61,521 bases of DNA, filler included, from Candidatus Babelota bacterium (GCA_017999075.1; 14 parts of 14 records of this genome joined end to end with filler, not necessarily neighbours in it); one strand, 5' to 3'; counted from the first letter of the whole stretch, positions 3,437 through 54,407 are shown. Notes: generated by a model from the letters alone, not told the origin. A program made the numbers and translations.

Positions 3437-3536
3437 NNNNNNNNNNNNNNNNNNNNNNNNNNNNNNNNNNNNNNNNNNNNTTAATTAATTAANNNNNNNN
3501 NNNNNNNNNNNNNNNNNNNNNNNNNNNNNNNNNNNN
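3437..3536. other. Artificial contig spacer N44-TTAATTAATTAA-N44 (also 6972-7071, 10506-10605, 14021-14120, 17524-17623, 21023-21122, 24519-24618, 40632-40731, 44121-44220, 47609-47708, 51096-51195, 54583-54682, 58058-58157)
   Basis: Identical 100-nt six-frame-stop linker occurs 13 times; genes are truncated at the linkers. Confidence 0.99.
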
Positions 3537-42488: not shown

Positions 42489-44120
42489 ATGAATTTTGAA
42501 CAAAATTTGTTTTCAATGAAAACGGGATTTTCCGATCTTCCGGATTATTTAATTCACTCCAAAAAGATTTCAGGAACAATAGAAAAAATCATTTTTTTCA
42601 ACCAGGAAAATAATTTCGTAATAGCAAAATTACAAATAAGCTCGAGTAATATAAGTGTTTCTGTCAAAGGTAAAATAATTCAGCCTTCCGAAGGCATGCA
42701 GGTAGAACTTGACGGATACTGGGATACTGATAAAATACACGGAGTCCAATTTAATTTTGTGAGTTGTGAAATTATAGAACCCACCACTCGAGAAAGTATA
42801 ATCAGATTTTTAGGTTCAGGACTGATTAAGAATATAGGGATAAAAACAGCTGAAAAAATAGTTGCAAATTTTGGCACAGAAACATTGCAGATCATTGAAA
42901 ATTTTCCCGAACGATTGATTGAAGTTGCGGGTATAGGAAATTCAAAATGCAAATTGATAACAGAAGGATATAAGAACCATCTTGATATAAAAAAAATAAT
43001 GATGTTTTTATCTGAACATAATATTTCTGTAAAATTCAGCTATAAGTTGTACTCTATTTATGGAGTAGAAACTATAACCGTTTTAAAAAATAATCCGTAT
43101 ATACTGATTCGCGATGTTAAAGGGATCGGATTTAAAAAAGCCGATGAAATAGCAAAAAAACTCGGCATACCTTCAGATAATAATTTAAGAATTGTAAATG
43201 GATTGTATTTTATTTTATCAGAAGCTGCTGGTTCAGGACATTCATATATTCCTTTTGATGAGTTTAAAATCAAATCTTCGGAACTTCTCAATGTGGATGG
43301 AGAAAAGATCAATTGTGTTTTAGCAAATACATTGCTTATGAATGATGCAAACATAATTATTGATGAGGACAGGGTATATTTGAAATGGAATTATTTTTGT
43401 GAATACGGAATAGCTGAACATCTGAGCAGACTTATTAATACATCTGATTCATTAAACGGAATATCGTATGAAGAAATAGAAAAATTGGCAGAAGAGTTGA
43501 GTGCTCAGAACAAAATCAGACTATCGGTTAATCAGCTGAATAATATTAAAACTGCAGTTAAAGAAAAAATATTTGTTTTAACCGGAGGTCCTGGAACAGG
43601 AAAAACTACAATAACTTATTTTATAGTTAAAATTTTTCAAAAGTTAAATATGCATACTGTTTTATGTTCTCCAACAGGCAGGGCCGCTAAAAGACTTTCG
43701 GAATTAACTCTGGAATGTGCAACTACGATCCATCGTTTGCTTGAGTATTCGCCTCAGTCAGGTTTTCAAAAAAATGAGAACAATAAACTATCGGCTGATG
43801 TTGTAATAATAGATGAATTCAGTATGACTGATTTGACATTGTTTTATAATTTACTTAAAGCCATTAAATATAATACAAAACTGATTTTAATAGGAGATTT
43901 TAATCAATTGCCGAGCGTCAATGCTGGAAATTTGCTGAGCGATATAATTTCTTCCGGAAAAATAAAAATAGGAGAATTGACAGAAATTTTTCGGCAGGAC
44001 GAAAAATCTCTGATTATTTTTAATGCTCATAATATTATAAATAATAGGAATTTACTTATAAGTAATTCACAAGATTCGGATTTTTTTCTAATTTCAAATG
44101 AAGATAAAAAAAATACGTTG
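42489..44120 (+). CDS. recD2: RecD2-family helicase (3' truncated)
   Basis: N-terminal OB/HhH region (NPY.L...GIGFKKAD), TGGPGTGKT, PTGRAAKRL, IIDE.SM, IGD..QLPSV. Confidence 0.93.
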
Positions 44121-44231
44121 NNNNNNNNNNNNNNNNNNNNNNNNNNNNNNNNNNNNNNNNNNNNTTAATTAATTAANNNNNNNNNNNNNNNNNNNNNNNN
44201 NNNNNNNNNNNNNNNNNNNNTTTAATATTAT

Positions 44232-44654
44232 TCAATTGTTTATCCTAACAGCAAAATAATACGCTTTGGCAAAGATTTCTGCTAAAAATTCATTAATAAA
44301 AGACGAACATACTAATCCGACAGTATCTTTGCCTGCTGTAACAAAATCAGGAACTTTTTTTTTTTTTTTAGCAATAACACCTATAAAATCAGGCCAGATA
44401 TTATATATTATTTTTTTTGCTTTTACTGGAATATATGCAAACGATTCAACTGTTTTAAAACTTACAATCAATGATAACGGCTTATTATTATCTCTGATTT
44501 TCAATTCGTAAATTTTTTCAACAGCATTTTTATCATACGCAGAACAAGCTAATCCGTATACTCCGCCAGATGGCCATAAAATTAATCCTCCTGATAATAT
44601 TATCTCATTTAATATTCCAATATATTCAATGCCTACTTTATTAATTATTATCAT
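44232..44654 (-). CDS. Sua5/YrdC (TsaC)-like protein, short and degenerate
   Basis: VYGLAC..AVEKIYELKIR..NKPLSLI; WPSGG replaces the usual PT(E/D)T; ends near the contig edge. Confidence 0.65.
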   Translation of the reverse strand: MIIINKVGIEYIGILNEIILSGGLILWPSGGVYGLACSAYDKNAVEKIYELKIRDNNKPLSLIVSFKTVESFAYIPVKAKKIIYNIWPDFIGVIAKKKKKVPDFVTAGKDTVGLVCSSFINEFLAEIFAKAYYFAVRINN

Positions 44655-45048
44655 CTATTATTACCCCGGCTTTTTCAAACTCTTGTTTATAAAAATCTTT
44701 TATCGCAAGATGCAATGCTGAAGCTGCATAATTCGAACAATGAATTTTATCTTCAGGCAGACCGCCGGCTTCTTCAACTGCAGTTACATCAGTTATCTGA
44801 AGAGCCTCGCCCAAAGTTTTATTTTTTGAAATTTCAGAAACTATTGAACACAAACCTATGGCTGCCCCGCATCCGAAAACTTTATATTTAACATCTGCAA
44901 TTCGATTATTTTCAACTTTAATGTAAAACTCAAAATAATCTCCGCATTCTTTACTTCCTATTTTCCCGATTCCGTCTGCGTTTTCAATAATGCCGACATT
45001 CCTTGGTTTTAAAAAATGATCTACAAGTTTTTCACTGTAATTATGCAT
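44641..45048 (-). CDS. IscU/NifU-type Fe-S scaffold
   Basis: YSEKLVDHF..PRN, CGD, FGCGAA, KIHCS. Confidence 0.92.
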   Translation of the reverse strand: MHNYSEKLVDHFLKPRNVGIIENADGIGKIGSKECGDYFEFYIKVENNRIADVKYKVFGCGAAIGLCSIVSEISKNKTLGEALQITDVTAVEEAGGLPEDKIHCSNYAASALHLAIKDFYKQEFEKAGVIIDDNN

Positions 45049-45160
45049 TTATTTGAGTTTACAGATGGTTTGATTTTAGAATTATACTATTATCATGCAA
45101 CATAATAAAATTGACATTTATCTGAAGTCAAGCTATTTTCGCCGCATAAAACTATTTGTC

Positions 45161-45194
45161 CCCGGTAAATTTTATAAACGAAAAATTTACCGGG
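45161..45194 (-). terminator. Hairpin downstream of trpB2
   Basis: CCCGGTAAATTTT..AAAATTTACCGGG 13-bp stem. Confidence 0.55.
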
Positions 45195-45239
45195 AGTAAT
45201 ATAATTTACAAAATAAACGCTCGTTAAATAATATAACTT

Positions 45240-46604
45240 TTATAAAACAACTTCCGGCAATTCTGTAAGAGATTTATCGATTTTAGATTGTTCAAGTTCG
45301 TAATTTACCAATTGATTGTTTAAATATTTTTCATAAGACGCCATATCAAAATGTCCATGGCCGCTTAAATTAAACAGTATAATTTTTTCTTCTTTCCTAT
45401 TTCTGCAGTCTATTGCTTTATCTATCGCGCATCTGATAGCATGAGATGATTCAGGAGCAGGTATAATTCCTTCTGTTTTAGAAAACAATGCAGCAGCTTC
45501 AAACACAGGAACTTGATGATACGCAACAGCATCAATCAATTTCAATTCTTTAGCGTAACTTACAAGAGGCGACATCCCATGATAGCGGAGTCCTCCTGCA
45601 TGTATCGCCGCAGGAATAAATGAATGCCCTAGAGTATGCATTTTTAAAGCAGGTGTCATCTTAGCAGTATCTCCATAATCATACGCGTATTTTCCTCTCG
45701 TAATAGTCGGGCATGAAAAAGGTTCAACAGCTATTATCTCAGGATTTTTCGTTTTATTAATTTTATCCTGCACAAATGGAAATGCAATACCTCCAAAATT
45801 ACTGCCGCCTCCTACGCAGCCTATAATTATATCAGGATAAGCATTCAATGCTTCAAACTGTTTTTTACATTCAAGTCCAACTATAGTTTGATGAAGAATA
45901 ACATGATTTAATACACTTCCTAATGCATAATTCGTATTTTTGTTAGTTACTGCCATTTCAATTGCTTCGCTTATTGCTATGCCAAGACTGCCTGGAGTAT
46001 CTGGCATCTGTTCAATAATTTTTTTCCCGAATTCGGTAACATTGCTTGGACTTGGATAAATTGTTCCTCCCCATGTTTGGATCATTGTTTTTCTGAACGG
46101 CTTTTGATCATAACTGATTCTTACCATGAATATTGTAATTTTCATGTCAAAAAAAGTTCCGGCTAATGCTAAAGCGCTCCCCCATTGACCTGCGCCGGTT
46201 TCAGTTGAAAGATTATCAACTCCTGAAATTTTATTGTAATACGCCTGGGGAATAGAAGTGTTGGGTTTATGGCTTCCAGCAGGACTCACACCTTCATATT
46301 TATAAAATATTTTAGCAGGAGTGTTTAAAGCCTTTTCAAGACGTTTTGCCCTTATTAAAGGAGCAGGTCTCCACAATTTATATATTTCATAAACTTCGTC
46401 AGGAATTTCGATCCAGCGCTCTCTTGTTACTTCTTGTTCAACAAGATTTTTGGGGAAAATAGCAAGAAGCTCGTCCGGAGTTGCAGGTCTTTTTTCTCTT
46501 GGATTATAAGGCGGCGGCAAAACTCCTGGAAAATCAGCCTGAATATTATACCATTTTTTAGGAAGTTCAGATTCAGGTAAAATATATTTAATGCTTCCTT
46601 CCAT
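45240..46604 (-). CDS. trpB2: TrpB2 (TrpB-like PLP-dependent enzyme)
   Basis: PKKWYNI, SPAGSHKPNT, TETGAGQWG, GSLGIAISEA, HAGGLRYHG, NLSGHG. Confidence 0.94.
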   Translation of the reverse strand: MEGSIKYILPESELPKKWYNIQADFPGVLPPPYNPREKRPATPDELLAIFPKNLVEQEVTRERWIEIPDEVYEIYKLWRPAPLIRAKRLEKALNTPAKIFYKYEGVSPAGSHKPNTSIPQAYYNKISGVDNLSTETGAGQWGSALALAGTFFDMKITIFMVRISYDQKPFRKTMIQTWGGTIYPSPSNVTEFGKKIIEQMPDTPGSLGIAISEAIEMAVTNKNTNYALGSVLNHVILHQTIVGLECKKQFEALNAYPDIIIGCVGGGSNFGGIAFPFVQDKINKTKNPEIIAVEPFSCPTITRGKYAYDYGDTAKMTPALKMHTLGHSFIPAAIHAGGLRYHGMSPLVSYAKELKLIDAVAYHQVPVFEAAALFSKTEGIIPAPESSHAIRCAIDKAIDCRNRKEEKIILFNLSGHGHFDMASYEKYLNNQLVNYELEQSKIDKSLTELPEVVL

Positions 46605-46649
46605 AAACACACACACTCCAAATTAGTTTTTAAAAATTGTTTCTGAATT

Positions 46650-47608
46650 CTAATTATTCAGTAAAAGTATTTCTACCCTGCGGTTCAATTTTCTTCCTTC
46701 GGATGTCGAATTATCTGCTACAGGTTTGGTGTCAGCCCATCCTATTACATTCAATCTTTTTTCAGATATTTTTCCTTTGGAAATAAAATAATCTATTACT
46801 GCAACTGCGCGGGCAGTAGACAACTCCCAGTTTGAAGAATACTTTGAATTTGACTTAAACGGAATATTATCTGTATGTCCTTCAACCTGAACTCTTCTAT
46901 CAGGATAATTATTTAATATTTCTATAACTTTATTCAGAGCTTCTTTTGAAGCATCTTTCAGCTCGGCCTGTCCTGCGCTAAATAAAACTTTATCTGAAAA
47001 AGTAATTTGAAGCTCTCCCTTATCAGTTTCTTTTACATTAACCTGTTTTTGTTCAACAAGTTTTGACAATTCATTTTTTATATTTTTATTGTCTTCCGCA
47101 AGTTTTTCAAGTTCTTCTTTACTTTTTGTCTGGAGTTTTTCAAGTTCTTCTTTAGATTTTGATTTAATCTGTTCAAGTTCAGTTTTCAAATTTTTATTAA
47201 TTTCTGATAAATTGCTTATTTCAAGTTCCTTTTGTTTCAAATTTGCCGTAATTTCTTCATTCTGAACTGGAACAGCAGCCGGCGCTTCTTTACCCGCAGC
47301 ATTAACCATACTTTTTACAGTAGCATTTAATTCCTCTACTTGTTTATTTAAATTATTATTTGCCGCCTGCAATTCTTCAACCTGTTTTTTATATTGATTT
47401 GCTGTATCATTCAGTTTTTGTAGTTCAGAATTATTTTTAGATTCAGCATCTGTTTTAGAAAGGGATTTCGCCTCACTTTTTTGGTCAATACTTGACTTTA
47501 CTGAATTTAATTCATCTGTAAGTTTTTGAATTTGATTTTTAAGGTCATTATTGGATTTACTTAAATTTTCTATCTGCTTTTTATACTCTTCTTCATTTTT
47601 CCTGGTTT
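46650..47608 (-). CDS. MotB/OmpA-like peptidoglycan-binding protein with long coiled coil (5' truncated)
   Basis: VEGHTDN, NWELSTARA, NRRVEI; frame open to the contig edge. Confidence 0.88.
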
Positions 47609-47708
47609 NNNNNNNNNNNNNNNNNNNNNNNNNNNNNNNNNNNNNNNNNNNNTTAATTAATTAANNNNNNNNNNNNNNNNNNNNNNNNNNNNNNNNNNNN
47701 NNNNNNNN

Positions 47709-47861
47709 TCCTTAAGAAACAGCTGAAAGGCTGATTTCCGCATAATAGGGTTTCGCTATACCGTTATTATAAATCCGCCGCGAAGATCCGCGTGAGGTTC
47801 CTTAAGGCAGTTATCGTAAAAGATAACAGGCCCGCATAACAGGGTTGCCGGATTTTCGCGG
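47709..47861 (+). ncRNA. Candidate IS110 bridge RNA (two internal-loop modules; 5' part truncated)
   Basis: TCCTTAAG-hairpin-CCGCATAA(T/C)AGGGTT occurs twice, 90 nt apart. The second copy is closed by a 13-bp stem CCGCGAAGATCCG/CGGATTTTCGCGG whose G-U pair favours the + strand. Confidence 0.65.
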
Positions 47862-48069
47862 TTTTCAATTATTAAGTATTGTTTCGGATTTTAAAATTCA
47901 TTGTTTCTTTTTGGCCGACCAAAAAGAAACAAAAAGTCGCTTACTTTTTTATTGAAAAAAGTAAGATAAAAACAAGGGGTTGTTTGCTTTATGAAAACCA
48001 TTTTTTATAAAAATTGGTTTTCATGCTTTCCAAAAAAATTTTTTAATATTTTTTACAGGAGGCATTGAA

Positions 48070-49431
48070 ATGATAAATGAAACATTAAAAAAAACCGAGG
48101 CGGAAAAATTTGTTATCGGAATTGATCCAGGCGATACTGAACATAAGGCTGTACTTGTATCGCCTGCTCGCATTTCATTATGCAAACCTTTCTCAATAAA
48201 GGTAAATGCGGAAGGATTTGAAACATTTTCAAAATGGCTTGATCAGATGAGGAAGGAACATAAAATAAATCAGGATGACCTGATATTAGCAATAGAATCA
48301 TCCTGCAATTTATGGCAGACTTTTGAATTTTATTTCAAAGAAAAAGGATATAAAATTGTTAAAGTCAGTCCTCTGACGACCTATCTTTCAAGAGGATTAA
48401 AAAACAGCAATTTATCAAAATCAGACAACAAGGATTGCCTTCTCGTGGCAGAATCAGTATTGAATGGTAAATTCACGGAATGTTACGAAATCGGCAAAAT
48501 TTATGAAAGACTAATAACGTTGAATATAGCGTTAAATAAATTACAGGATACCTGCGTGCAGGCAAAACTGCGTGTTCGTGGAATACTACATAAAATATTT
48601 CCGGAGTTTCTGAACATCCTTGACCTTAATACTGCCACCGCTGGTTTTTTATTGAAAAAATATATTTTTCCTGTTGATTACTTGAAAATAAAAGATTCTG
48701 AAATCACTGAACTGGGCGAGGTTTTAAAAAAATTATCTCAATCACAGCACAATTCTGAAACAATTCATAAACTTAAAAATGCCGCAAAAAAATCAATAGG
48801 CATCAGAAAAGAATATATTGAAGAAGCTGAACGTATATTGTTCAAAAGTTTTTTTGATGTTTATGAAAATTTAAGCCGCGAGGTTCTGATTGTCGGCGAA
48901 AAAATAATTCAAACTGCATATGAATGCAGGGAATTCCATATCCTTGTTTCAGTTAAAGGAATCTCGGAAATATCAGCAGCGCAGATAACAGCTGAAGTTG
49001 GAGGATTCTTAAGATATTCTCATTATAAACAGATTGAAAAACATGCGGGATTGAATCTGAGAATAAATCAGTCTTCTAAAACTGCAAACGCAAGGCACAT
49101 AAATAAAATCGGAAACAAGCGACTCTCAAAAGTTTTATATCAGACAGCGCGGCACGTAACAAATTATGTTCCGGAGGTAAGGATAAAATATGTTAACAGA
49201 AAACAGAAACATAAAGCTTACAAGAAAAATATTATAGCTTGTATTTCACCGCTTCTGCGCTTGCTGTTTTCGCTGGTTAAAAATGATAAACCTTATCAAC
49301 TCGATGAAAACGCTTACAAAGAGCTTTGTGCAATCGAAACAAAATACAATATTAAAAATAAAACCATAGATCATTATACTCCTAAAGAAAAAAGCAGATT
49401 CACAAAAAGGCATTTACTGAAAAAAATATAA
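48070..49431 (+). CDS. IS110-family recombinase/transposase
   Basis: RuvC-like DEDD (IGID, AIES, KSDNKD), IFPEF linker, C-terminal VKGIS..AAQITAEVG..AGLN..NQSS..INKIGNKRL; RBS AGGAGG. Confidence 0.93.
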   Translation: MINETLKKTEAEKFVIGIDPGDTEHKAVLVSPARISLCKPFSIKVNAEGFETFSKWLDQMRKEHKINQDDLILAIESSCNLWQTFEFYFKEKGYKIVKVSPLTTYLSRGLKNSNLSKSDNKDCLLVAESVLNGKFTECYEIGKIYERLITLNIALNKLQDTCVQAKLRVRGILHKIFPEFLNILDLNTATAGFLLKKYIFPVDYLKIKDSEITELGEVLKKLSQSQHNSETIHKLKNAAKKSIGIRKEYIEEAERILFKSFFDVYENLSREVLIVGEKIIQTAYECREFHILVSVKGISEISAAQITAEVGGFLRYSHYKQIEKHAGLNLRINQSSKTANARHINKIGNKRLSKVLYQTARHVTNYVPEVRIKYVNRKQKHKAYKKNIIACISPLLRLLFSLVKNDKPYQLDENAYKELCAIETKYNIKNKTIDHYTPKEKSRFTKRHLLKKI

Positions 49432-49920
49432 TTTTAAATTGGAGTTCTGGATTATGTGAAATTTTATATTTTAAATTTTTTACAAAATTCAGCGATTCGA
49501 TTGTTTTATTTCTTTGGCAGATAAAATAATCCACTTTACTGTTTGAAAATTTTGATTGCCTATTATTAACATGGCGCTGTAAGAGGCGGAAACGCGCTCC
49601 GTATAACCGCATAAAATAAAGTGTTACCTTTTTTACCGGGTCGGATAAAAAAATTCTTCAATTATTGGCTGATTAACTTCGAGCCGTACGCCGCTGCAAA
49701 TATAAGCGGCATTATAAATTAAAGTGAGGATGGATATACCGGTAGGAATAAACTAGGGGAACCACGCAGGCAAAAAAAATGACTAAAGCCGTACTGGTTA
49801 TCGCTGTATTCATAAGGGCATATCTATGCTTTCATAGATGATTTTTTTTATGGTTTGATTTTTTTTTACTTCTGTTTTTTTTAATACTGGAATTTTTTTC
49901 TTGACAAAACGGGGGGAGAT

Positions 49921-50013
49921 AGGAGCTATCCTCGTTTTGCCGAAGGCAAAATGACGCGAAGCGCCGAGCCCGTAGGGCTCGAGGGATAGCTCCAAGATAG
50001 TCGCTGTCAGAGG
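49921..50013 (-). other. attC-like folded site downstream of the nuclease gene (R' side replaced by the IS end)
   Basis: Stem GGAGCTATCC(C)TCG/CGAGGATAGCTCC with one extrahelical base; three sub-hairpins with GAA, GAA and GTA triloops on the + strand; R''-like GACTATC. Confidence 0.7.
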
Positions 50014-50948
50014 TAATCAGGAATCATCATTAATTTACCAAAACGTTCGTTTTCTTTTTCTGAATGATTCCTTAAAGTTAACTGAGAGATACATACGATA
50101 AATTCTTTAAGTTTGTCAAAAGCTTCGTCTGTATAAATATCCCCATGTACATGAATACCGTTCAATATTGCCATTATCCATTTAATATAGCATCGAGGTA
50201 TTAATAAATCTGAAATATCATTCCAGCCAGTTATATTGCCTCGCTCCTTATAAGCTAATCTTTCTAATGATTTATCGCATTCACCCTTACAAGCCCAATA
50301 AATACTGTGAATGGTTTTTTTGCCATCTTCGTTATTTCTACTTTGCTCCATAGCAATAATACCGGAATAATTTTTATCAAGCAATTCTTTTCCACAAACA
50401 TCACATAATAGAGGCGAATAATCAGAAAGTAAATCTGTTTTAGTATCTTTTGGAGCACATATTTGCTTATAGCTTTCTGGAAAAAATCTTTGAATGAGAT
50501 TGATGCCTTCTCCGCAATTAAGAAGTTCCCTTTCAATTCTTTCATTATCAAGTATGGCAATTTCTAAATTATTATTTTCTTGAATTCCTTTAAGGCGTCT
50601 TGATAATGGAGAGCTTATTACAGTAGAATAAAATCCAATAAAACCATTACACTTATGGGCGTTAATTCGATCAACAATATTCTGCTCATCTGCTTCGCTA
50701 ACAGAAGCTCCGCTGTGAATTCGATGTTTGCAGCTTATCAACCATCGCTTTTCGGAACTTGTCAACGTACCTTTTTGTTTTTCTACTGCAATAATATCTC
50801 GCCCACCATCCTGTCCTCTATCCGGTCCTTCTTTGACCTTGAAATGTAATATAATTTCAATAAACTCTCTACAAAATAATTCAAAACTATCTTGTTTTCC
50901 ATCAGCTTTATTAGCCATTGGAATTTCTTTGAAATTTAGTGCTCCCAT
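50007..50948 (-). CDS. Mrr-like PD-(D/E)XK endonuclease with C-terminal zinc-binding domain (cassette gene)
   Basis: FELFCREF..GQDGGRDII..WLISCKH; CDVC..WACKGEC; RBS GAGGAG and no room for a promoter. Confidence 0.78.
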   Translation of the reverse strand: MGALNFKEIPMANKADGKQDSFELFCREFIEIILHFKVKEGPDRGQDGGRDIIAVEKQKGTLTSSEKRWLISCKHRIHSGASVSEADEQNIVDRINAHKCNGFIGFYSTVISSPLSRRLKGIQENNNLEIAILDNERIERELLNCGEGINLIQRFFPESYKQICAPKDTKTDLLSDYSPLLCDVCGKELLDKNYSGIIAMEQSRNNEDGKKTIHSIYWACKGECDKSLERLAYKERGNITGWNDISDLLIPRCYIKWIMAILNGIHVHGDIYTDEAFDKLKEFIVCISQLTLRNHSEKENERFGKLMMIPDYL

Positions 50949-50970
50949 TTTTTCTCCTCTGATGGCGACT

Positions 50971-51055
50971 ATCGGACAGTGCTTTTACTCGGCGCGAAGC
51001 GCTGACCGCAAAGCGGCCGAGCCCGCAGGGCTCGAGGTAAAAGCAAAAGTTAGAT
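50971..51055 (-). other. attC-like site upstream of the nuclease gene
   Basis: Minus strand ATCTAAC-TTT-TGCTTTTAC(C)TCG..CGAGTAAAAGCA-CT-GTCCGAT. Three sub-hairpins (GAA, AAA, GCA loops on +). Shares GAGCCC-G(T/C)A-GGGCTC with the 49921 site. Confidence 0.75.
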
Positions 51056-51208
51056 GTCGTACTCTATCCTTTATTGCAATGCAACTGCTTTTTCCNNNNN
51101 NNNNNNNNNNNNNNNNNNNNNNNNNNNNNNNNNNNNNNNTTAATTAATTAANNNNNNNNNNNNNNNNNNNNNNNNNNNNNNNNNNNNNNNNNNNNCATTT
51201 ATACATAT

Positions 51209-51284
51209 GGGGCTGTGGCGCAGCTGGGAGCGCGCTTGAATGGCATTCAAGAGGCCGAGGGTTCGACTCCCTTCAGCTCCACCA
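51209..51284 (+). tRNA. tRNA-Ala(GGC)
   Basis: GGGGCTG/CAGCTCC acceptor with G3:U70, anticodon arm CTTGA-ATGGCAT-TCAAG, encoded CCA. Confidence 0.97.
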
Positions 51285-51484
51285 ATTTTTTATATTGGTT
51301 TACAGTCATTAAATTTACATTAGCAAATAGTTATATTCATTTTGTAAATAAAACGATTAAAAAGAATTGGGAATTTGAAAATTTTAAAACATTTATAAAT
51401 GCATTTTTTATTTTAAAAAACTAAGACCAGGTTATTTAAAATATATGAAAATTTATAAATATTTAGGAGAATATAATATAATAT

Positions 51485-52462
51485 ATGAAAATAAATTTTT
51501 TTGAATACACAAAATTTCTTGCCTGTCCCGAATGCAGAAAACCAATTGAATTTATTTCTAACGCTTATTATTGCAATAATTGCAAGAAAAACTATCCTAT
51601 TATCGATAATATTCCAAGATTTATCGAAATTAAAGACGATTTATTATCAAAAGCAAAAGCACACTGGGAAGATTCCCCTAATTTTCAATATGAAGCGAAA
51701 TCCGAATTATATACAAAGGAATATTACGAAGAACAGGATAAATGGAGAAAAAATGACATCGACCCTTTTTGTATGAAAGAATATAAATTCAATGAGATTA
51801 AAGACAAAGTTATTCTTGATATCGGTTGCGGTTCTGGATGGGTAGTAAAACAGGCTGCAAAAAATGGAGCTATTGTCATAGGTGTTGATTTTGCCGAAAA
51901 AGCGTGCATTAGTTCAAGAAAAGCTCTTGACACTTATAGCTTGAATGGATTAATAATACAGGCTGACGCTCAACATTTGCCTATAAAAGACGAAATTATA
52001 GATCGAATATTTTCTATAGGTGTTCTGCATCATATACCTAAAACCGAATTAGGCATTGAAGAAGCTTTTAGAACGCTAAAAAAAAAAGGAACTGGATTTA
52101 TCAGTTTATACGGCAAATTATTTTTTTTCAATAAGCTTATTTTTCCTGTCACTCAATTTTTATTAAAAATTCTATTAAAAGCTCCAAAAGTAAGAGATGG
52201 AATTCAAAATACTACAGATTATGACGAATTTTACAGATTTATGGATGGAGCGACAAATCCTATAGGCAGATGGTACACTAATGAGCAACTGATACAAATG
52301 TTCCATAAATTTAAGATATTATCCATATCAAAAAGTCATTTTCCCTTAAGATATTTAAACTTATTTGGAATTCCTCTAAAAAAATTAATTCCAAAATTTA
52401 TACATATAATTCTGGAAAATAATTTCGGAATGATGCGTAATATACAATTTATTAAACATTAA
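51485..52462 (+). CDS. Class I SAM methyltransferase with Trm112-like N-terminal zinc ribbon
   Basis: LACPEC..CNNC..YPIIDNIPRF; ILDIGCGSG; ADAQHLP; GVLHH. Confidence 0.88.
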   Translation: MKINFFEYTKFLACPECRKPIEFISNAYYCNNCKKNYPIIDNIPRFIEIKDDLLSKAKAHWEDSPNFQYEAKSELYTKEYYEEQDKWRKNDIDPFCMKEYKFNEIKDKVILDIGCGSGWVVKQAAKNGAIVIGVDFAEKACISSRKALDTYSLNGLIIQADAQHLPIKDEIIDRIFSIGVLHHIPKTELGIEEAFRTLKKKGTGFISLYGKLFFFNKLIFPVTQFLLKILLKAPKVRDGIQNTTDYDEFYRFMDGATNPIGRWYTNEQLIQMFHKFKILSISKSHFPLRYLNLFGIPLKKLIPKFIHIILENNFGMMRNIQFIKH

Positions 52463-52638
52463 AAATATAATTAAATGAATTTTTAACATATCTGTCAACG
52501 GTTTCTGTTTTTCTGATTTTTCAAATTCATATCTATACATATAATTATATTGTGCTTTTAAATAATTTAATAATTTCAAATAATTCAAAGAATTCTTGAT
52601 TTTTTTTATAATTCACATAAAATGTTTCAATCTAAAAT

Positions 52639-52722
52639 GCCGAAGTGGTGAAATTGGCAGACACGTACGGTTCAGGTCCGTATGGGAGCAATCCCTTGTG
52701 GGTTCGAATCCCATCTTCGGCA
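52639..52722 (+). tRNA. tRNA-Leu(CAG)
   Basis: GCCGAAG/CTTCGGC acceptor, TACGG-TTCAGGT-CCGTA anticodon arm, long variable arm; CCA not encoded. Confidence 0.96.
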
Positions 52723-52762
52723 TATTCAATATTATTTCTATTGTACAGTATGGATTTAATCT

Positions 52763-53206
52763 ATGGTTCAACAAACATCTATCCGCAATCAGGTTCGCGA
52801 CATTTACAGAATAATAGACGCTAATTACAACAGAATCAATGAAGGGTTAAGGGTGATCGAAGAATATTTCAGGTTTATAACTGAAAACATTGATATTCAA
52901 AAAAAAATAAAAGAAATCAGACATATACTTTTTTCTGAGATAACCGCAAATTTTGATTATTCAAAACTTCTGGAATTCCGCGACTCGCAAAATGATCCTG
53001 GTTCAAAATATTCCACAAATTCTGAATTAGATAAATCAAGCGCTGAAAATATTTTAATATCAAATTTTAAACGGATTCAGGAATCATTAAGAGTACTTGA
53101 AGAATATTCAAAACTGATATATCCTGAATCAAGTATAACATTCAAGAAACTAAGATTTGAACTTTATGAAATTGAAAAAAAATGTTGCGGAAATATTGAG
53201 CTTTGA
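52763..53206 (+). CDS. Stand-alone ThiD2 / ThiE N-terminal-like helical domain protein
   Basis: RIIDANYNRINEGLRVIEE..RD..D.G..NFKRIQESLRVLEE..LRFELYEIEK. Confidence 0.8.
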   Translation: MVQQTSIRNQVRDIYRIIDANYNRINEGLRVIEEYFRFITENIDIQKKIKEIRHILFSEITANFDYSKLLEFRDSQNDPGSKYSTNSELDKSSAENILISNFKRIQESLRVLEEYSKLIYPESSITFKKLRFELYEIEKKCCGNIEL

Positions 53207-53219
53207 AATAATTAAAAAT

Positions 53220-54407
53220 ATGTCAAATTTTACTATTGAAGAATTTAATCACAGAATTTCAAAATTACAGAATCATCTTGCATCAAAAAATATTGATGCA
53301 GCTGTATTGACCCAGAATTCTGATATTTATTACTATTCAGGTTCGTGCGAACCTCTGTATCTTATTATTCATTCAAAAAAACCTGCTGTGATGTTAGCGA
53401 GAAAAGCAATTTCAAGAATACGCGAAGAAGTAAAACACATTGAATTATTCGAATTTTATAATTCTTCTGATATGCAGAAAATAATTGACAAGCTCGAACT
53501 GAAAAATTCAGGTTGTATAGGGTTTACTCTTGATACAGTATCGTATTCAACTGTGGACAGGTTTAAAAAAATCATTAATTTTTCTGCTGCTGCAGATATC
53601 TCTTTTGACGTAAGAATGCTCAGAGTATGTAAATCAGAATCAGAATTAAATGTCCAGATTGAAGCAGGAAAAATTACTGCACAGCTTCCGGAAGTCATAA
53701 AAAAAGTTTTCGTTCCCGGAATGACAGAACTTGAACTCAGCGCTGAAATCGAAAAATATTTCAGACTAAACGGCGGAAGTCCGGTTATAAGATGCAGAAA
53801 AGAAGGAATTGAATGTATCGGAGTATGTTCGTCAGGAATTAATTCTCTTTCAGGAACAAAATTTGACGGAATATGTTCAGGTTCAGGAATTTCTTCTGCA
53901 ACTCCTTACGGAGCAAGCCGTGATATAATACAAAAAAATATTCCTGTAATAATTGATTTCGGATTCAGTTTATACGGATATATTGTAGATATAACAAGAA
54001 TGTTTTGTTACGGAAAAGTTTCTGATAAAATTATAAACGCATATAATTCAATGTTAAAAATTGAAAATGAACTGATAAAAATTATAAAACCAGGAACTTT
54101 ATGGTGTGACATTTATGATTCTGCTTTTAAAATGGCTGTTTCTGCAGGATACGAAAAAGAATTTATGGGATTGGATTCTGAAAAAGTAAGGTTTGTTGGT
54201 CACGGCATAGGTTTAGAACTGGACGAACCACCGTTCCTTGCGCCTAAAATGAATTTCCTGCTTGAAGAAAATATGGTTATTGCAATTGAACCTAAAGTAT
54301 CATTGCCTGACATAGGAGTTATAGGCATTGAAAACACTTATATAATACGTAATAAACACAATCAATTACTTACCTGCTGTTCAAATGATTTTATTTATAT
54401 AAATTAA
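53220..54407 (+). CDS. M24 Xaa-Pro peptidase family protein
   Basis: Creatinase N-domain; IDFG..GYIVDITR, GHGIGLELDE.P, AIEPK, GIENT. Confidence 0.92.
   Translation: MSNFTIEEFNHRISKLQNHLASKNIDAAVLTQNSDIYYYSGSCEPLYLIIHSKKPAVMLARKAISRIREEVKHIELFEFYNSSDMQKIIDKLELKNSGCIGFTLDTVSYSTVDRFKKIINFSAAADISFDVRMLRVCKSESELNVQIEAGKITAQLPEVIKKVFVPGMTELELSAEIEKYFRLNGGSPVIRCRKEGIECIGVCSSGINSLSGTKFDGICSGSGISSATPYGASRDIIQKNIPVIIDFGFSLYGYIVDITRMFCYGKVSDKIINAYNSMLKIENELIKIIKPGTLWCDIYDSAFKMAVSAGYEKEFMGLDSEKVRFVGHGIGLELDEPPFLAPKMNFLLEENMVIAIEPKVSLPDIGVIGIENTYIIRNKHNQLLTCCSNDFIYIN

Follow-up and report, generated by a model that had tools for sequence, protein, structure and literature searches.

We analyzed a 61.5-kilobase (kb) window, the whole stretch of 61,521 nucleotides (nt) from Candidatus Babelota bacterium (GCA_017999075.1), and within it an insertion sequence of the IS110 family whose transposase gene is preceded by two RNA-like loop modules and followed by a putative third and fourth loop. 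The window is a chain of short contigs (~3.5 kb each, one ~16 kb) with 13 joins between window positions 3440 and 58150, each an N...TTAATTAATTAA...N linker, and because it consists of joined contigs, features that appear to cross a linker are not true neighbours. One 3.4-kb contig, 47709-51096, holds the transposase element, two attC-like hairpins and a probable second left end. The linker at 47610-47708 precedes it, and the contig edge at 47709 removes the left part of the element, as the first-pass annotation of this DNA had suspected, together with the 5' side of module 1. The main parts of the element are listed below; L002 is the locus of the nearest relative for which DNA was available (47% protein identity).

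47709-47752, plus strand: module 1, of which the end of the 5' loop strand, the apical hairpin and the 3' loop strand remain, the 5' part being lost at the contig edge.
47777-47862, plus strand: module 2, with a 14-base-pair (bp) closing stem, a large internal loop and an apical hairpin; positional homologue of module 2 of L002.
47901-47965, plus strand: a pair of strong hairpins separating the modules from the gene, the first with a 14-pair stem (47901-47932), the second at ~47938-47965 and read by eye.
48070-49431, plus strand: IS110-family DEDD transposase of 453 amino acids (aa), with Pfam PF01548 and PF02371.
49900-49922, plus strand: right end of the element, consisting of TTGACA, 16 nt and then ..ATAG, a layout found in 30+ right ends of relatives.

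The open reading frame (ORF) at 48070-49431 matches PF01548 (expectation value, E, 8.5e-14) and PF02371 (E 4.2e-15), an N-terminal RuvC-like DEDD domain and a C-terminal Tnp domain, and has a full-length match of 129.3 bits to NCBIfam NF033542 (IS110 RNA-guided transposase), just below the cut-off of 140. Residues D19, E76, D119, D122 and S335 are invariant across 25 aligned relatives. The C-terminal Tnp part aligns weakly to IS621 (8wt6, E 8e-4), with a serine near the IS621 catalytic serine region, and we take the D-E-D-D residues and the conserved serine to have the catalytic roles familiar from IS621. Both Pfam domains and these conserved residues bear out the IS110-family identity proposed for the element. 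Protein relatives fall into a cluster at 94% identity, one at 87%, one at 46% and then a large clade at 35-40%. A scan of the genome collection with the transposase protein returned one locus only, at 38% identity, and scans of viral contigs returned two chance matches in unrelated genes and no relative. Besides L002, DNA was available for about 80 loci, mostly from the 35-40% clade; blastn of both non-coding regions against 81 loci gave short matches only.

Upstream of the gene, modules 1 and 2 share the strings TCCTTAAG and CCGCATAA(T/C)AGGGTT, present in the sequence as first described, and a 15-nt repeat (47738-47752 and 47832-47846, 93% identical); in both, UCCU directly precedes a conserved UUAAG. 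The 14-bp closing stem of module 2, G-U pairs included, joins 47777-47790 with 47849-47862 and encloses an internal loop of ~19 and 21 nt and an apical hairpin of 6 bp. This is the architecture previously reported, with a stem of 13 bp and a loop of 16 x 17 nt, values that differ slightly from ours. The fold of module 2 reaches -38.3 kcal/mol (z = -4.9), which none of 200 shuffles equalled. Two modules are likewise found in L002, the motifs of its module 1 (L002 392-462) matching those of module 1 in the window. Because the same architecture occurs there at the same place, with stem sequences that are unrelated yet still pair, the upstream modules are beyond chance. The hairpins at 47901-47965 may mark the 3' limit of the RNA.

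Element ends in the clade were set by identical or near-identical copies at different sites (L048/L049, L021/L026 and L011/L068). The relatives are elements of 1.9 kb that start TAACGAT.TCTAT.. and end ..TTGAC. N8-9 AAG[T/A/C]AG; L048 and L049 share all 1928 nt between the initial TAACGAT.. and the final ..AAGTAG (100% identity), and beyond either end their flanks diverge at once. There is no duplicated core in this pair, and the IS621-type pattern of the same core dinucleotide at both boundaries is absent. All right ends in the family finish ..AG, with TTGACA 16 nt before the end, which places the right end of the window element where it had been put (~49922); the right-end string is unique within the window. 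No AG adjoins the end in the left flank of L002, whereas the left junction in the window does hold AG, at 51052-51053. Sub-terminal inverted repeats of 7-17 bp are a feature of the IS1111 group; no clear or long one was seen by eye in L004 and L048, the two loci inspected. At L037, a second family left end (TAACGATTTCTATCTT, L037 2725-2740) lies ~800 nt downstream of the first element's right end, which suggests clustered copies.

Two loops lie 3' of the gene in these relatives, 56 loci having been searched. We named the first target-binding-type (model R1) because its 5' strand reads as the antisense of the right flank of the same element, and the second donor-binding-type (model R2) because the variable letter of its 3' strand equals that of the right end. 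In the target-type loop a long closing stem leads into an internal loop and then an apical stem, with 83.5% of cells paired as against 38-46% when the partner is slid, and compensatory changes in 16 of 23 pairs. The partner of its 5' strand is the top strand of the right flank: the pairing scores 5.33 for the element's own flank and 4.19 (standard deviation 1.25) for the flanks of other elements (n = 30), and k-mer enrichment between this 5' strand and the right flank is 8 and 5 against 2.8 and 1.1. The same 5' strand gave no signal against the element's own right end (4.30 own, 4.25 others). In the donor-type loop, pairing of the closing stem reaches 84.5% and each of its 11 pairs has compensatory changes; the 3' strand copies the right end, the variable letter of AAG[T/A/C]A being the right-end letter in 22 of 22 (by eye, with k-mer support). 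Structured RNA whose target and donor loops covary with flanks and ends is found in the relatives, and in the window by homology and architecture only. Many of the relatives' right flanks contain RYYYAAC-like boxes and GC-rich palindromes. In L021 (1995-2004 and 3560-3575), the target-type 5' strand is by eye also perfectly complementary to 10 nt within the element's own left end (TTCTATGCTG).

The placement of these loops sets the window and L002 apart. R1 matches 47 of the 56 loci, once each, and 46 of these matches lie downstream of the gene, L002 alone having its match upstream; R2 matches 48 loci, all downstream, L002 included (2169-2303, 35.3 bits). The relatives thus carry a 3' RNA of the IS1111 type (46/47 R1 and 48/48 R2 matches), whereas the window and L002 have the donor-type loop 3' and the target-type loops 5', and the left-end position that the first-pass annotation assigned to the RNA proves exceptional in the clade (1 of 47 R1 matches). 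On L002 module 2 (474-559) the R1 match is full-length and well paired, with 33.4 bits (E 2e-6), and on window module 2 the model scores weakly in the same register (9.7 bits, E 4.6); both agree with the earlier proposal that the upstream modules are RNA of the guide-loop type. The modules of L002, at 392-557, lie inside the element because its left end, at 324, is the homologue of the left ends of the family. Downstream of the gene, two further features occupy the positions of the relatives' loops.

49564-49630, plus strand: diverged loop at the relatives' target-type position, with the motif GCTCCGTATAAC where the relatives have GCTTCGTCTAAC, and a weak fold.
49622-49754, plus strand: weak counterpart of the donor-type loop (model R2, 11.2 bits, E 1).

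In both the window and L002 a diverged loop persists where the target-type loop formerly stood, 3' of the gene; R1 gave no match on 49564-49630 at E up to 10, and did not detect the counterpart in L002 at the same limit. The R1 and R2 matches in the window are weak, and position and architecture carry them. We think it probable that in the subclade of the window and L002 the target-type loops lie at the left end of the element and the donor-type loop at its right end. The 5' strand of L002 module 2 is complementary in 11 of 11 positions to the right flank of the window element at +5..+15, the register of the relatives (2 of 5000 shuffles as good), which hints that such loops may be aimed at the arms of the hairpin repeat family into which the window element is inserted. 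To the right of the element this repeat family and its surroundings comprise the following.

49923-50013, no strand assigned: attC-like hairpin A, -26.9 kcal/mol, z -5.5, its left outer arm displaced by the element and its right outer arm at 49996-50013.
50007-50948, minus strand: 313-aa ORF between the hairpins, without a family match, bracketed by an 18-nt inverted repeat that is 89% complementary.
50956-51054, no strand assigned: attC-like hairpin B, the sister site, -27.9 kcal/mol, z -4.2, with GTTAGAT at 51049-51055 on the plus strand.
51055-51096, plus strand: probable left end of a second copy or close variant, formed by the last 42 nt of the contig beside hairpin B, with a boundary that is ambiguous over 51053-51060.

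In each of hairpins A and B three mini-hairpins sit inside a 10-bp stem, whose single unpaired G has the same position in the two sites; both contain the core motif CCGAGCCCGYAGGGCTCGAGG, which is absent elsewhere in the window. The R'' and R' boxes of attC sites read RYYYAAC and GTTRRRY. Site B has GTTAGAT on the plus strand with the partner ATCGGAC, and site A has GATAGTC, its left box being displaced. Traits of the attC type found here are an imperfect hairpin with an unpaired base, a single ORF between the sites and a multi-copy repeat, the last because read depth in run X1 is 110-319 over the repeat bins as against 8 over the cassette ORF. The GTTAGAT of site B is canonical and the remaining boxes are imperfect; "attC-like" is the fair term. 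That the element abuts such a hairpin, as had been claimed, agrees with the fold of A. The occupied positions differ, lying between outer and inner arm in A and at the outer edge of the GTTAGA box in B.

At 51055 the sequence agrees in 13 of 16 positions with the left-end 16-mer of L002, the single best match in the window and in the same orientation, and 51055-51096 is probably the left end of a second element copy or close variant, although 51053-51059 also completes the outer stem of hairpin B; a circular or tandem form may be the alternative. AAAAGTT stands just upstream of the left end in both L002 (308-316) and the window (51044-51051), and this could be chance in AT-rich DNA or a common left-target motif. 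The right flank of copy 1 (49923-49940) resembles the interior of the left end (51062-51078), with the heptamer CTATCCT in both; across 23 relatives, likeness between right flank and left-end interior does not hold (5.00 versus 4.58). A standard promoter across the circle junction was considered and rejected, as a simple join would put 22-26 nt (hand count) between TTGACA and the left-end TATNNT, which is too far.

We propose that the element would be a roughly 2.3-kb insertion sequence from a distinct clade of the IS110/IS1111 superfamily, apparently lodged in attC-like hairpin repeats around a one-gene cassette, with a second left end at the sister repeat. In the relatives of 1.9 kb and 35-40% identity the guide RNA would lie 3' of the gene, with the target-type loop followed by the donor-type loop. 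In the window and L002 the target-type loops would instead lie in the long 5' non-coding region inside the left end, while the donor-type loop would stay 3'. Because the target-type loops are then at the left and the donor-type loop at the right, the loop regions would be contiguous only across the circle junction, so that the RNA parts would flank the right-end/left-end junction on both sides and adjoin only in the excised circle. We consider this division of the loops between the two ends rather likely overall, and we infer for both upstream modules a role as functional target-binding loops directed at the arms of these repeats. A bolder version is possible but tentative: two to three target loops (modules 1 and 2 and the diverged 3' loop) and one donor loop would form a split, multi-loop bridge RNA over both ends, joined in the circle and programmed for several hairpin-arm targets, and the element would be a living intermediate in the proposed move of the bridge RNA from one end to the other, between the IS1111 layout (right end) and the IS110 layout (left end).

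Several results weigh against dividing the loops in this way. The reading was built from sequence and fold comparison, and for the subclade it draws on two elements with DNA, the window and L002, of which the window gives only the low R1 and R2 scores reported above. Pairing between modules and their own sites does not support it: the whole 5' strand of window module 2 against its own right flank was matched by 3370 of 5000 shuffles, and the L002 module-2 guide has no match in the L002 flank (3493 of 5000 shuffles as good), to which the 3' loop of L002 gives a weak match (451 of 5000). The match of 11 of 11 is between elements and arose from many comparisons, and three of its 11 letters lie in the closing stem of L002. 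No loop strand rose above shuffles when compared with the ends of its own element, the closest approach being that of L002 module 2 to the left end of L002 (133 of 3000); a likeness seen by eye between the 3' strands of the modules and the sub-terminal right end did not exceed shuffles or other elements either. Module 1 lacks its guide part, which is lost at the contig edge. For the second left end, 19 other window positions reach 12 of 16 against the L002 16-mer.

The first-pass annotation had read the upstream modules differently, as a complete bridge RNA of the IS621 type in which the donor loop precedes the target loop, acting on minus-strand sites with a CT core and specifying this very insertion site, and we now regard this as improbable. 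The strings on which it was built are real: the junction string (49917-49929) and, on the minus strand of 50979-50982, the sister-site CT-GT read as quoted, AG (CT when read on the minus strand) closes all right ends of the family, and the UCCU of both modules can pair with AGGA at 49921-49924. The pairing of the relatives' 5' strand is also IS621-like only if read on the opposite strand, and a variant in run X6, AGGAAC TATAC, would change one wobble to a Watson-Crick pair (from a 30-letter consensus only). Nonetheless, the pairing of the 9-nt guide GAGGUUCCU with 49921-49929 (5 Watson-Crick pairs, 3 wobbles and 1 mismatch) is reached at 25 of 6760 contig positions and so is at chance level. 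The predicted minus-strand donor ..TC-CT fails against the left end at 51055, which gives ..ACA-CT-AT, or ..CAT-CT if the core is shared, and the occupied position of the sister site reads CT-AA where CT-GT had been predicted. A CT core shared by the boundaries finds no support in the relatives, as core duplication is absent in L002 and in L048/L049, where the flanks differ right up to both ends. The order of loops is not supported either, since the donor-type loop lies 3' of the gene (in L002 with 35.3 bits, in the window with 11.2 bits and E 1); loop 1 is for that reason unproven as a donor loop, and the strand motifs of module 1 are those of module 2 and of the target-type loop, not of the donor-type loop. 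The observation behind that annotation is thus confirmed and its interpretation partly supported, but its exact guide-to-site code does not hold.

It is also conceivable, though unlikely, that the upstream modules are relics or regulators, for instance duplicated loops serving as messenger RNA (mRNA) leader or transposase-binding decoys, while the 3' RNA does all the guiding. The loops retained by the window and L002 at the family's 3' positions would fit this, as would the poor R1 score of window module 2 and the fact that the right flank of L002 is best matched by its own 3' loop (score 8), but that match is not significant in shuffles. L002 module 2 is moreover a full-length R1 match, while its 3' counterpart goes undetected, and the stems survive complete sequence turnover between elements whose proteins are 47% identical. 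A misjoin, in which 47709-47900 or the 42 nt at the far contig end would be an assembly artefact, seems very improbable. The window does derive from short metagenome contigs, and several variants at 85-96% identity co-occur in run X1; against this, an independent contig of 2234 nt from run X6 covers 47709-49810 in one unbroken piece and extends 135 nt further left, and L002, from another data set, has the same layout. An 836-nt contig of run X1 also reaches beyond 47709, by ~210 nt to the left. In run X6 the element has a depth of ~109 and the cassette is nearly absent; a variant copy there departs after 49909 and then again reads AGGAAC TATAC (30-letter consensus only). About 14 nt are still absent between the loose-end consensus at 51095 (30 letters, ~29 nt past 51096) and 47709 (one contig each from X1 and X2). 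Parts of the stretch are without cover in runs X2 and X5, and we draw no conclusion from this.

Insertion into attC is known from IS1111-type elements (ISKpn4, ISPst6 and ISPa25), which target it with a 3' seekRNA (Siddiquee et al. 2024, PMC11187229). As these are described there, the window element and its relatives resemble them in having a DEDD transposase and site-specific insertion next to or inside cassette hairpin recombination sites, in a structured RNA whose earlier segment pairs to the top strand and whose later segment pairs to the bottom, and, for the relatives studied here, in an RNA 3' of the gene. They differ in the protein, which is 453 aa here, in the 5' placement of the target-type loops that marks the window and L002 subclade, and in that no long sub-terminal inverted repeats were seen (by eye, L004 and L048 only). 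A tblastn search of plasmids returned 723 matching records, all below 60% identity and at most 28.9% among the 15 matches listed, with no attC-targeting relative among them.

In IS621 and the IS110 group, a left-end bridge RNA carries both loops and a CT core stands at both boundaries (Durrant et al. 2024, PMC11208160; Hiraizumi et al. 2026, PMC13626964). To the extent of these accounts, the likenesses are target and donor internal loops, RNA upstream of the gene inside the left end, a circular intermediate and an outward-facing TTGACA near the right end. IS621 has both loops in one left-end RNA, whereas here the donor-type loop is at the right end; the relatives here have no duplicated core, and their guide is ~11-14 nt long with best pairing at +5..+15. 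Of over 350 ISfinder entries of the IS110 family, 26 have two long non-coding regions (Siddiquee et al. 2024, PMC11187229; compare ISMtsp17 with ISPye21). Like the present elements, they have extended non-coding stretches flanking the gene, and close relatives differ in the side that carries the RNA; in the relevant part of that paper the entries are counted without stating which loop lies on which side. Target stem-loops have been reported as a specificity layer (bioRxiv 10.64898/2026.03.19.712850, in the portion available). A literature search, which did not cover supplements, found no account of target-type and donor-type loops at opposite element ends.

Outside the element, an Rfam search of window 44000-54000 at E up to 1 gave no match on the element itself. 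At the start of the next contig (51209-51284), the Rfam transfer-messenger RNA (tmRNA) model scored 36.9 bits, below its gathering score of 47, through the tRNA-like ends of the model only. The neighbouring contig has an OmpA-family ORF at 46650-47372 with a long repetitive N-terminal part, including a 33-nt tandem repeat at 47101-47166.

Complementarity of the module 1 5' strand to GGAGCTATCCTCG or to the flank of its own copy would favour a target loop, and complementarity to the right-end/left-end junction a donor loop. Bridge RNAs and seekRNAs are becoming genome-writing tools, and the move of the RNA between element ends and the use of several target loops by one recombinase are open questions in this field. 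Insertion into attC-like repeats bears on the reshaping of cassette arrays, a habit already known in another IS1111 subgroup. If our reading is true, an element with its target-type loops on the left side and its donor-type loop on the right would represent an RNA move in progress and provide a natural test of whether the loops can act as separate RNAs.

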